DNA of 64,000 bases from Escherichia phage teqhad. The stretch is from sequence record NC_054933.1; one strand, 5' to 3'. Shown here piece by piece: positions 9,813 through 15,595 of this stretch. Every line of letters starts with the position of its first letter. Positions within the stretch are counted from its first letter, which is position 1. A program made the translations under genes and the position numbers. Under the pieces are notes generated by a model, which worked only from the letters and a program-made list of their open reading frames with translations, had not been told where the DNA came from and ran no database searches.

Positions 9813-9855
9813 AATGTTTTCCTTGTGATGATAAGTCTATAGTAACGCCTTCATA

Positions 9856-10020
9856 CTTAGATGTAAACTATTTCAACATCGCCTTTTGCTGTTTTATAAC
9901 CTTCAGCCCAAGATACAACCGAGTTTTTATCTGAAGATTCAAATTCTGGCATTGGGCTTTCGCCAATGTTCACGCAGTATGTTTCTTCATTTTCGTCGAA
10001 CCAAATAATTAAAGTAGTCA
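9856..10020 (-). CDS. small hypothetical protein (about 54 aa), below the ORF-track cut-off
   Basis: Read by eye: MTTLIIWFDENEETYCVNIGESPMPEF... Confidence 0.3.
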
Positions 10021-10089
10021 TTTATTTCTCCGTTTCTGTATTTGTTTTGATAAGTCTATAATAACACCATCCTTGGTGTTTGTACACAA

Positions 10090-10416
10090 TTATTTCATAT
10101 TATTGAAATATTCTTCTGCGATTTCGTCGTTATCATGGTAAACTTTAGAAGACAGTTTAACATAACCTTCAGCAGTGAACATGTTAATCACAACCTTTAC
10201 AGTATACCACTGACCATCTTCATTACCCATTACTGCGTAAGTTTCAAACATCGGATGGTCAGGACCGATAACTTTAATATCATTCACTGTACGACCGAAA
10301 TCTTCTGAAACACATTTCATAAAGAAGTTGAACAGCTCACCGTAATTATCCATTTCATTCTCCAAGTTGTTTTCTGTATCAGTAGTTGATAGTTGTATAG
10401 TACCATGGAAGGGCAA
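10090..10416 (-). CDS. hypothetical protein
   Basis: ORF track start is TTG; true start may be the internal MDNYGELF. Confidence 0.5.
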   Translation of the reverse strand: MPFHGTIQLSTTDTENNLENEMDNYGELFNFFMKCVSEDFGRTVNDIKVIGPDHPMFETYAVMGNEDGQWYTVKVVINMFTAEGYVKLSSKVYHDNDEIAEEYFNNMK

Positions 10417-10561
10417 GGATGTAAACCGTTTTGTGAAAAAATTTTTAAAAAGTTTTGGGGAATTCTAGGGCAGGAAGGGGAAATCAAAGGATAGGATAAT
10501 ATATTATAAAGGGTAGAAACTAAATGATGTCTAGAGAGGCCCGGAAAGGCCTAGATACCAA

Positions 10562-10590
10562 AAAGCCCCAACCTTTCGGCTAGGGCTAAG
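10562..10590 (-). terminator. rho-independent terminator hairpin downstream of the IP-like gene
   Basis: Plus-strand aaaagccccaacctttcggctagggct; the minus strand reads a GC hairpin followed by a T-run. Confidence 0.6.
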
Positions 10591-10594
10591 AATG

Positions 10595-11068
10595 TTATTT
10601 GATTTGTTTAGCAGACCAAATGCGATCTTTAATAATTTTTTGGATGTCTTCAACATACTCTAGGTCATGAGCATGTGGATTATCTTTGAAACTATGAGCT
10701 CGCGCAAGTTTCTGGCCTTCGGTCTTAATTATCAAAAGTTCTTTAAGAATTGCTTCATACCTAGAGATAATTCCTTTAGCAATATTTTTTTCTTGTGCTG
10801 CTTTAGGGTCAGCCTTAGGAGCAGGTTTACCTGAAGCCTTTGCAAAAGCAGCTCCAGTAGCAACTAAACTTTTCCAGGCCATACTAACTGCATTTCCCGT
10901 AAATCCTTCTGCTTTCATGTCGCGAGCAAATTGGAATCGTGATTCATCAGAAGCATCTTTATAGGAATATTTACCCGCTGCAATGGCTGCTTTTGCGACA
11001 GCTTGAATTTCGGTGCTAAACGCTTCATTTAACACCGCTTCATTTAAAAATTGAGTATATGATTTCAT
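10595..11068 (-). CDS. internal-protein-like protein with a divergent capsid-targeting N-terminus
   Basis: MKSYTQFLNEAVLNEAF resembles the IP CTS MKTYQEFIAEA; Ala- and Lys-rich body. Confidence 0.55.
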   Translation of the reverse strand: MKSYTQFLNEAVLNEAFSTEIQAVAKAAIAAGKYSYKDASDESRFQFARDMKAEGFTGNAVSMAWKSLVATGAAFAKASGKPAPKADPKAAQEKNIAKGIISRYEAILKELLIIKTEGQKLARAHSFKDNPHAHDLEYVEDIQKIIKDRIWSAKQIK

Positions 11069-11118
11069 CTTATTTCCTGTTTTAATTTGTAGATTTAATA
11101 TACTTATTTATACTAAAA

Positions 11119-11146
11119 AGCCCCAACCTTTCGGCTGGGGCTAAGC
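11119..11146 (-). terminator. terminator hairpin, near-identical copy of the one at 10562..10590
   Basis: aaaagccccaacctttcggctggggct. Confidence 0.55.
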
Positions 11147-11149
11147 CTT

Positions 11150-11455
11150 GCGGCAACCTTGTCGGGGTTCCACCTGCTAAGGCAAGTGTTTGTACGAAAC
11201 GCCGGGATTCGAACCCGGTTATCAAGCAGTTGACGCTACTCAATATTTTTAAAAGGCCATATCTCGACCATATCCGAACGTTCCGTCAAAAACGCTACTC
11301 GGCTTACGGCAAAGATATTTCCTCGAATCGATAATTCGGTGCGCCGTTTCTGCTGTGATGTAAGGGGATATTAACAAATCATAAAGATTTATTAAGACCA
11401 GTCCTTACTCAGGGAACATCAGTCCGACGTCTTGCCGGTAGCGACCCGGCTTCTT
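11150..11455 (-). ncRNA. possible small stable RNAs of the tRNA cluster (T4 rnaC/rnaD-like)
   Basis: Non-coding stretch downstream of tRNA-Arg with a T-arm-like gggattcgaaccc at about 11211..11227 and paired termini (cgaaacg / cgtttc); position parallels T4 species 1 and 2 RNAs. Confidence 0.25.
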
Positions 11456-12406: not shown

Positions 12407-12412
12407 TCTATA

Positions 12413-13045
12413 TTATTTATTACGTGAAAAAGATTGTTCTATCAATTCTGGACACTTTCGTTCTATCCATTTTCTAGCTTTTTGTGGGCTTATACCTATT
12501 ATTTTAGCAGCTTTACTAACCCATCCAAATTTAGAATAATCGATTTTAACTAATTCTTCGTAAATTTCATCAGTTAAAATCTTTTCATTAATATTTACCA
12601 GTAAATGATATAATTTATTATCATTAGCAATTTTAATGAATCTTTTATAGTTTCCGCCTTTACTTAAACCTAATGAAGTAATTGCAGATGATATAGTAGC
12701 CGAATTTAATAATGCGTTTAAAATTTCTTCATCACTAACATTATAACGCTTTTTATTATTTTTAATATTTTTACCAGCAAAAGTATCAGTTTGCGAATGG
12801 CAATTTGGACATAATAATCTTAAATTTGATTTAAGATGATTTTTATTATTTCCATCAATATGGTCTAATTGCAGAACAATATGCTTATTTTGCCATTTTG
12901 AAATTTTACAAATTGCACACTCATATGGAAAAATATTTTCTTTTATTATTTTGTCTTTCAGCTTTCCTGTACTAAAATTTGGATGTTTTCCTTCAAAAAT
13001 TTCAGCTAATTTAGTATCCATAATATAATTCCCAATTATTAACAA
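12413..13045 (-). CDS. free-standing HNH homing endonuclease with C-terminal helix-turn-helix
   Basis: HNH core LQLDHIDGNNKNHLKSNLRLLCPNCHSQTD; C-terminal WVSKAAKIIGISPQKARKWIER HTH-like; probable true start at MDTKL. Confidence 0.8.
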   Translation of the reverse strand: MLIIGNYIMDTKLAEIFEGKHPNFSTGKLKDKIIKENIFPYECAICKISKWQNKHIVLQLDHIDGNNKNHLKSNLRLLCPNCHSQTDTFAGKNIKNNKKRYNVSDEEILNALLNSATISSAITSLGLSKGGNYKRFIKIANDNKLYHLLVNINEKILTDEIYEELVKIDYSKFGWVSKAAKIIGISPQKARKWIERKCPELIEQSFSRNK

Positions 13046-14342: not shown

Positions 14343-14528
14343 TTATTCACCTTTAGAAATTTTATCCATAACGATAGCAATTAAACCAATTAAAAATGCT
14401 ACTACAAGTGAAAAAACATTTTCTGCTGTAGTCAATAATCCGCATATAAATCCAACAAACATTGAAAAACTAAAAGCAGAAGCAGAAATTGCAATAGCAA
14501 CATTTCGAATTAATTCACAACGTTTCAT
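14343..14528 (-). CDS. small two-helix membrane protein (61 aa)
   Basis: Hydrophobic helices AIAISASAFSFSMFVGFICGLL and VVAFLIGLIAIV. Confidence 0.5.
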   Translation of the reverse strand: MKRCELIRNVAIAISASAFSFSMFVGFICGLLTTAENVFSLVVAFLIGLIAIVMDKISKGE

Positions 14529-14586
14529 TTTATTCTCCTCAGTAGTAGATAGGGTAATAGTATCACTACCCTATCTAAAAGTAAAC
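14529..14586 (-). promoter_or_regulatory. early-promoter-like element (copy 1 of a repeated module)
   Basis: Minus strand reads aagTTTAC-(18 nt)-TACTAT...gaggagaataaaATG; the 22-mer gatagggtaatagtatcactac recurs at 14850..14871. Confidence 0.4.
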
Positions 14587-14838
14587 TTATTTTTTACGAA
14601 AAATTGATTTATATTTATCAGCCCATTTCTCGATGACTTTTTCTGGTCCATAGATAACAAAATAATCACCAAACTCTTCACCACCGAGTTGACCGAAATT
14701 ATCTAATGCATCACGAAGAACTCCATGAGGCATTTCGCCCATTTTATCTTTCTTACCAATGTAAATAAACTCAACTTTTACATCAGCAGCTTCAGCAATA
14801 AATTCTTGATACGTTTTCATTTTATTCTCCAATTTCAC
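14587..14838 (-). CDS. ipI: internal protein I (IPI)-like, capsid-targeted, with a divergent effector domain
   Basis: Internal ATG gives MKTYQEFIAEA, an exact IP capsid-targeting sequence; position next to 57B parallels T4 ipI; the mature part is unlike T4 IPI as recalled. Confidence 0.7.
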   Translation of the reverse strand: MKLENKMKTYQEFIAEAADVKVEFIYIGKKDKMGEMPHGVLRDALDNFGQLGGEEFGDYFVIYGPEKVIEKWADKYKSIFRKK

Positions 14839-14898
14839 ATTTGTTTTGATAGGGTAATAGTATCACTACTAAAACCCCGTGTAAACAACTTTGTGAAA
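14839..14898 (-). promoter_or_regulatory. early-promoter-like element (copy 2) upstream of the ipI-like gene
   Basis: Minus strand reads gttgTTTACAcggggttttagtagtgaTACTATtaccc...; shares the 22-mer with 14529..14586. Confidence 0.4.

Positions 14899-15595
<697 letters not shown>

Follow-up and report, generated by a model that had tools for sequence, protein, structure and literature searches.

The interval between rnaC and e.8 in the window (the whole stretch of DNA analyzed, 64,000 nucleotides in length) contains a genuine cassette subject to gain or loss, built around a 157-aa gene designated here as gene A, whose product resembles the internal (injected) proteins (IPs) of T4. The principle of such cassettes is already established for these phages. 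It is probable that this is a late-expressed accessory cassette with a probably encapsidated product, and that the terminator repeats on either side of it both insulate the gene and serve in unequal recombination. An exchangeable cassette had been suggested in the first-pass annotation of this DNA, and single-copy empty sites together with alternative occupants in related genomes now lend that suggestion sequence-based support. The main value of the locus is that it draws attention to a so far neglected family of proteins that are probably injected.

Genomic context and expression signals

The window is from a Tequatrovirus, and in this region it is 97–98% identical to slur02, teqhal, PhiZZ23, and others. 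Gene A and all of its neighbors share the minus strand (Table 1), on which the upstream genes are, in order of transcription, ten tRNA genes, rnaD, and rnaC, and homologs of e.7, e.6, and e.5 lie beyond e.8.

Table 1. Features of the rnaC–e.8 interval in the window, together with genes found in the same interval of related phages (no window position).
Feature	Position	Strand	Description
e.8 homolog	10090–10353	−	Downstream neighbor of the cassette
e.8 early sigma-70-type promoter	10397–10425	−	TTTACA-17-TACTAT with TG; conserved in T4
Second small hairpin	10537–10552 (stem)	−	ggcccggaaaggcc; part of the conserved e.8-proximal flank, outside the cassette
Downstream repeat copy	10555–10590	−	Predicted gene A terminator; stem-loop 10564–10587, U-run 10560–10564
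Gene A	10595–11068	−	157 aa, IP-like, PHROG 2280 ('unknown function')
Leader coding region	11021–11068	−	Capsid-targeting-like decapeptide MKSYTQFLNE plus duplicated LNE↓A
Shine-Dalgarno sequence AGGA	11075–11078	−	6 nt 5′ of the ATG
T4-type late promoter (predicted)	11105–11112	−	TATAAATA; follows the U-run, 36 nt before the ATG; perfect consensus match
Upstream repeat copy	11110–11145	−	Predicted tRNA/rnaC operon terminator; stem-loop 11119–11142, U-run 11115–11119
rnaC (species 1 RNA)	11193–11331	−	136/139 identical to annotated T4 rnaC; last gene of the tRNA/rnaD/rnaC unit
Gene B			187 aa; MKTYAEFLTEA; 165 records; found with gene A
Gene C			184 aa; membrane protein, DUF7338; found with gene D or gene A
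Gene D			205 aa; MKTYNEFLNESVLNEAG; 144 records; found with gene C

Transcription of the tRNA cluster has been reported to stop after the species I RNA gene (PMC2330249), and the terminator that follows rnaC in the window follows it in T4 as well, where GenBank entry X03016 labels it 'pot. terminator'. With rnaC lying directly upstream, the upstream repeat copy is therefore the predicted terminator of the tRNA/rnaD/rnaC operon. The first three bases of the predicted late promoter (TAT) are at the same time the last three bases of the repeat, and this junction of terminator and TATAAATA precedes the gene in 12 of the loci compared and in other genera as well. A sequence motif search found no early or middle promoter motif in gene A's 50-nt leader.

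An additional hairpin had been reported near 10540 on first reading, and one is indeed present at 10538–10551. It lies 7 nt past the downstream terminator, lacks a U-tract, and is kept at empty and occupied sites alike; in T4, the pairing moves to another helix.

The flanking repeats as predicted terminators

A direct repeat bracketing the 157-aa gene that begins MKSYTQFLNEA had been described in the first-pass annotation, and a pattern search located both of its copies, with coordinates for the repeats and the extra hairpin shifting by only 1–3 nt; the pattern itself is 27 nt as typed, and not the 28 nt then given. This 27-mer has two exact plus-strand matches in the 64-kb window (10561–10587 and 11116–11142), which differ within the pattern solely by A at 10582 versus G at 11137, and no further match occurs in the window at up to three mismatches. 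The expectation from 100 dinucleotide-preserving shuffles is 0.00, and an origin of the repeat by chance or convergence is rejected. Extension without gaps yields a 36-nt direct repeat in which 34 of 36 positions are identical, with a spacing of 555 nt between the copies.

In minus-strand RNA, both copies form a 10-bp stem without mismatches that is capped by a GAAA loop and followed by U5, and the downstream copy carries a single C-to-U change that converts a G-C pair to G-U. The corresponding fold energies are −20.6 kcal/mol for the upstream copy and −18.3 kcal/mol for the downstream copy (z = −4.0 and −3.7, respectively, relative to shuffled controls). Plus-strand folds are weaker (−15.9 and −9.7 kcal/mol), contain A-C mismatches, and lack a U-tract. 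The two copies rank top among terminator-like sites in a scan of 4–16 kb, and both have the predicted features of intrinsic (Rho-independent) terminators on the minus strand only.

Variation among relatives bears on the functional strand. Across ten distinct terminator variants, 92% of the stem cells stay paired; the changes in the stem replace G-C with G-U or A-U on one side, apart from one compensatory swap of C-G to G-C in Dhakavirus. Moreover, the 5′-arm variants AG, GA, and AA pair with an invariant UU of the 3′ arm in minus-strand RNA only. Since the variants keep their pairing in the RNA of that strand alone, the element acts as RNA on the minus strand.

It had also been considered that the repeats might be a common terminator found at many sites. 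Within the window, the element occurs at this locus only, and in related genomes it was found at 607 places in 584 records, i.e., at almost no extra sites. Reuse of a generic terminator across the genome is accordingly rejected for T4-like phages.

A 19-nt core of the element, AAAAGCCCCAACCTTTCGG, recurs in a conserved context in unrelated viral contigs of IMG/VR, many of them ~38 kb in length (L004, L005, L008–L012, L017, L018, L026–L029, L032, L034, L035, and L037). Megablast of these core-bearing contigs against the GenBank phage collection gave no match, and the core may represent convergence or an old shared terminator. A permissive-threshold Rfam search of 9–13 kb returned tRNAs only, with no match at the hairpins.

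Gene A and its leader

Gene A is the sole substantial ORF between the repeat copies, and tblastn detects it in 510 phage records, once per record. Its leader is identical to MKTYQEFIAE of T4 IpII and IpIII at five of ten residues and differs conservatively at two more (S/T and L/I). The leader motif fits three ORFs in the window, and the other two belong to PHROG internal virion protein families. The predicted prohead protease (gp21) motif, L-x-E↓A, occurs as LNE↓A at residues 8–11 and again at 13–17, giving a predicted mature form of 147 or 141 aa with a pI of ~9.5, similar to the IPs of T4. The LNEAVLNEA duplication arises from a 15-bp tandem repeat (11021–11032 and 11036–11047), and other alleles of gene A either lack the duplication or have in-frame indels of four or five codons at the same site. 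The duplicated unit, CGCTTCATTTAA, occurs twice, 15 nt apart, within 11021–11047 of the window.

A Pfam search of gene A found no domain. The AlphaFold model (pLDDT of 73) contains helices only, arranged in two domains with a Pro/Lys/Ala-rich linker between them, and it has no significant fold match in the PDB; in BFVD, it matches its own orthologs only. A search of a large protein database gave only 13 clusters for gene A, all of them 'hypothetical', and neither Pfam, fold searches, nor the literature offered a function. No nuclease, integrase, or transposase was found in the cassette, where gene A is the only ORF and has neither a Pfam domain nor a fold match.

The 'IP-like' label given to the gene in the first-pass annotation agrees well with its predicted attributes, namely the leader, the L-x-E↓A motif, the late promoter, and the basic pI. 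A conserved CTS is known to target IPs (PMC3012670), and with a leader that contains the L-x-E↓A motif, the gene A product is therefore most likely synthesized late, taken up into the core of the prohead, cut to its mature form, and injected together with the DNA in the manner of T4 Ip1–3. By analogy with these, its role is most likely anti-defense. We infer both encapsidation and this role by precedent from Ip1–3, taken together with the leader and the promoter.

Conceivably, the gene A product is neither encapsidated nor injected; the resemblance to a CTS would then be inherited and functionless, and the protein would act in the cytoplasm late in infection. In favor of this idea, the leader shares only half of its ten residues with those of IpII and IpIII, PHROG 2280 is labeled 'unknown function' whereas bona fide IP families are labeled internal virion protein, and no proteomic report on the gene A protein was found in the literature. 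Against it, the leader is the most conserved stretch among the otherwise very divergent products of genes A, B, and D and ends in L-x-E↓A, and gene A has late-only expression signals and a basic product like those of IP genes. On balance, a purely cytoplasmic protein appears unlikely.

Empty sites and alternative occupants

The comparison with related phages that had been proposed for this locus revealed loss, replacement, and addition. The interval is empty in T4, T2, phage 132, N2, BP32, Manna, and G2540-3, all of which have the same flanks and a single copy of the terminator; relative to these phages, the window gains a 555-bp unit of the form 'AAATA...gene...terminator...GTAT'. When the 621-bp region was used as a BLAST query, the whole unit was present in 401 of 480 matching records, and in an evenly spaced sample from the 480, approximately one-sixth matched only the ~50-nt terminator segment. 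A 120-nt query spanning the T4 junction bridged the insertion in many records, and its matches at ≥80% coverage (at least 80%) mix empty and occupied sites and provide a rough estimate only. These locus frequencies derive mainly from BLAST summaries of GenBank phages, supplemented by 10 IMG/VR loci with e.8 and a metagenome scan (n = 10). G2540 and G2540-3 were considered as a parent/deletion pair and rejected as such; they are mosaic relatives, 93–98% identical, with several other differences.

Other relatives contain genes A + B, C + D, or A + C in the same interval, i.e., one or two cassettes. Genes A, B, and D all bear a leader and give full-length matches to PHROG 2280, and pairwise BLASTP is significant for A–D and B–D. 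Given this common PHROG and the BLASTP matches, occupants A, B, and D of the locus are therefore leader-bearing paralogs of one diverging family. Both states of the site also occur in Mosigvirus, where NBG1 is empty and F31 is occupied, with the lineage's own terminator variant. In Jiaodavirus and Tegunavirus, homologs lie between the tRNA/rnaC region and e.6, directly after the terminator and TATAAATA. The gene family is thus ancestral at the site, and the empty sites are therefore derived deletions.

The association of the gene with matching flanking repeats, as first described, breaks down farther away: a different hairpin serves as the terminator downstream of gene A in Jiaodavirus, Tegunavirus, and some Dhakavirus-like loci. 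Since the terminators of these distant genera are not identical, identical flanking repeats are therefore not required for gene function.

Several individual loci depart from the common arrangements. In Escherichia phage vB_Eco_F26 (OP870145.1; L059), a frameshift splits gene A into a 111-aa ORF and a remainder, and a tandem duplication of ~330 bp comprises the 3′ end of gene B with its terminator as well as the e.8 promoter and the initial 25 nt of e.8; either a genuine rearrangement or an artifact of assembly could account for this structure. Between gene A and e.8 of IMGVR_UViG_2974735671_000001 (L042), there is a remnant of gene C consisting of MKLLK and a stop codon plus the 3′ end of the gene, and the internal deletion is not bounded by terminator repeats. 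Another locus, L041, combines an upstream terminator of Mosigvirus type (TTCC) with a copy behind gene A that matches the Tequatrovirus variant CCCTAGCC, which is also present in the window, and a Tequatrovirus-type gene B follows that copy. Judging from these sequences, L041 is an inter-lineage recombinant.

Probable involvement of the repeats in rearrangement

All eight empty sites, seven from Tequatrovirus and that of NBG1, end inside the repeat with one copy remaining. Across the ~24 loci on which the shared-marker argument is based, both copies in general share the variant of their lineage, which is AGCCCC(GA/AG)CC in Tequatrovirus, GCCCCTTCC in Mosigvirus, and GGCCCTTCC...GGGCC in Dhakavirus. 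A U-U internal loop, which selection for stability would disfavor, is common to both copies in the Mosigvirus and Dhakavirus variants. The occurrence of a lineage-specific variant in both copies therefore implies continuing exchange between copies, through gene conversion or repeated excision and re-insertion, and not a single ancient duplication. In addition, the dinucleotide 'AG'/'GA' after the U-run occurs next to the upstream copy at 8 of 10 occupied Tequatrovirus loci, next to none of seven e.8-adjacent copies, and in three of seven empty sites, a distribution that fits the products of copy-to-copy recombination. The e.8-promoter haplotypes common to empty (132 and N2) and occupied (teqsoen and 101117BS1) phages likewise point to repeated events or frequent exchange.

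An alternative would be that the terminator was copied once, long ago, and that the repeats are passive, the cassette being moved by homologous recombination in its conserved flanks. T4-type phages recombine very frequently, the flanks on the e.8 and rnaC sides are 92–98% identical among hundreds of phages, and distant genera retain the gene without identical terminators, all of which suits this explanation. Moreover, 36 nt of homology is short for efficient recombination in T4, which counts against the repeat-mediated model. Nevertheless, we consider passive repeats improbable: an ancestral gene implies deletions, eight of eight empty sites end exactly in the repeat, and a single old duplication cannot give each of three genera its own variant in both copies.

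It has also been weighed whether neighboring homing endonucleases, SegB in T4-type phages and the HNH-like ORF at 12413–13045 in the window, drive the inheritance of this region with the cassette as a hitch-hiker, in which case the tRNA region would be co-converted, along with adjacent markers, during the repair of double-strand breaks. SegB does cause the tRNA region of T4 to be inherited preferentially, its flanks being co-converted (PMC2330249), a further report describes its promotion of segmental amplification near this site in T6 (PMC13096335), and the endonuclease-like ORF lies only ~1.3 kb from the cassette. While such a process would cover the spread of the cassette, it accounts for neither the repeat-bounded junctions nor the co-variation of the copies, and occupied and empty states both occur with and without segB, making it very unlikely as the underlying cause. 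Flank crossovers and homing co-conversion are complementary routes of spread and not explanations of the junctions.

From the structure of the junctions, then, we infer recombination at the repeats, and the proposed model of an insulated, recombining cassette can be outlined as follows. A self-contained unit would be placed right after the tRNA/rnaD/rnaC operon terminator, with the order terminator, TATAAATA, ribosome-binding site, gene A, and second terminator copy. The two terminators would insulate gene A from its neighbors, and the 36-nt direct repeats would be substrates for unequal homologous recombination. Such recombination could remove the 555-bp unit and leave one terminator, as in the T4/T2 state, or it could duplicate the unit and thereby seed paralog arrays such as A + B and C + D.

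Other features of the window

The window also contains an equivalent of the ipI locus (14480–14960, minus strand), with a 77-aa leader-bearing gene at 14587–14820 that begins MKTYQEFIAEA and belongs to a PHROG of internal virion proteins. It is flanked by near-identical early-promoter/stem-loop elements, GTTTAC...gatagggtagtgaTACTATtaccctatc, which are classical repeats of the promoter-early stem-loop (PeSL) type. A direct repeat of 50 nt, 72% identical between its copies (9823–9872 and 10042–10091), lies upstream of two small ORFs of the e region; each copy has an early-promoter-like GTTTAC...TACTAT on the minus strand, and the two may be another PeSL-like pair. Finally, the minus-strand ORF at 12413–13045 encodes 210 aa with an HNH-like match (Pfam HNH, E = 0.006, below the curated cutoff) and immediately precedes tRNA-Leu, in the place that tRNA-Gln occupies in close relatives. 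At about 12407–12410, beside this ORF, homology to relatives is interrupted; the ORF is probably a free-standing homing endonuclease insertion.

Comparison with known systems

The repeat has been noted before, in the annotation of phage RB32 (NC_008515.1), where RB32ORF133c is the ortholog of gene A and has the note 'flanked by 34 bp imperfect direct repeat'. In contrast with the present work, that annotation includes no terminators, late promoter, leader, or empty site of T4, and no publication discussing RB32ORF133c or its repeat was found.

Hypervariable IP loci were described in T-even phages by Repoila, Tetart, Bouet, and Krisch (1994, EMBO J 13:4181), whose work, as summarized in PMC4122927 and PMC12373910, proposed that IP genes vary and that the repeated regulatory sequences bounding them mediate their shuffling. 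The rnaC–e.8 locus resembles these classical loci in that its small genes vary in number and identity, have nothing but a leader in common, and are bounded by repeats. It differs from them in three respects. First, the classical loci are ipI, beside 57B, and ipII/ipIII, beside e, whereas the present one is a site between rnaC and e.8 that is empty in T4. Second, the flanking repeats of the classical loci are early promoters of ~70 bp that include an inverted repeat, whereas the repeat here is an intrinsic terminator of 36 nt that runs into a late promoter. Third, occupants A, B, and D of this locus form a single paralogous family. What sets the locus apart is its site and its linker of terminator plus late promoter.

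Recent literature still counts two IP loci (PMC12373910). As a tentative proposal, which we think has somewhat less than an even chance of being correct, rnaC–e.8 could be a third, hitherto undescribed IP hotspot of T-even phages, at which the PHROG 2280 family (A, B, and D) expands and contracts through unequal crossing-over at repeats of terminator plus TATAAATA, which would be the late-gene equivalent of PeSLs, and supplies injected inhibitors of host defense. If so, members of the family would be expected to inhibit further host defenses, e.g., other variants of type IV restriction.

The gene A product can also be compared with T4 Ip1, Ip2, and Ip3 (Bair et al. 2007; Silas et al. 2025, PMC12373910), each of which specifically inhibits different GmrSD restriction enzymes (PMC12373910). 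It resembles them in its MKTYQEFIAE-type leader, small size, basic character, late expression (here judged by promoter motif), and encoding by an accessory gene that varies between phages; in contrast, it has no sequence or fold similarity to them beyond the leader and belongs to a separate PHROG family. The leader-bearing family occurs in roughly 400–500 sequenced T4-like phages and is absent from T4 itself. Given the leader and the inhibition of GmrSD by Ip1–3, its members are therefore candidate anti-defense factors and host-range determinants.

Finally, modular shuffling at PeSLs has generalized the idea of exchange at repeated regulatory elements (Arbiol et al. 2010, PMC2839356; Comeau et al. 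2014, PMC4122927). As with PeSLs, the elements described here flank dispensable ORFs in hyperplastic regions, with a single element kept in a relative, and they would both insulate transcription and supply homology for insertions and deletions. Two characteristics by which PeSLs are recognized are found here, i.e., a stem-loop predicted to be able to terminate and the presence of two copies around a dispensable ORF versus one in a relative. The 36-nt repeat, however, is shorter than the ~70–100 nt of PeSLs and has no sigma-70 early promoter, consisting only of the hairpin, the U-run, and GTAT; the nearest such promoter, at 10397–10425, lies outside of it. Moreover, the promoter that follows the stem-loop here is a late one, and it occurs in only one copy. 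Modular shuffling would thus extend beyond the early-promoter PeSLs, with a plain terminator that regenerates a late promoter at every junction being able to serve the same purpose, and the locus should be useful both for understanding the plasticity of phage genomes and for engineering insertion sites within them.
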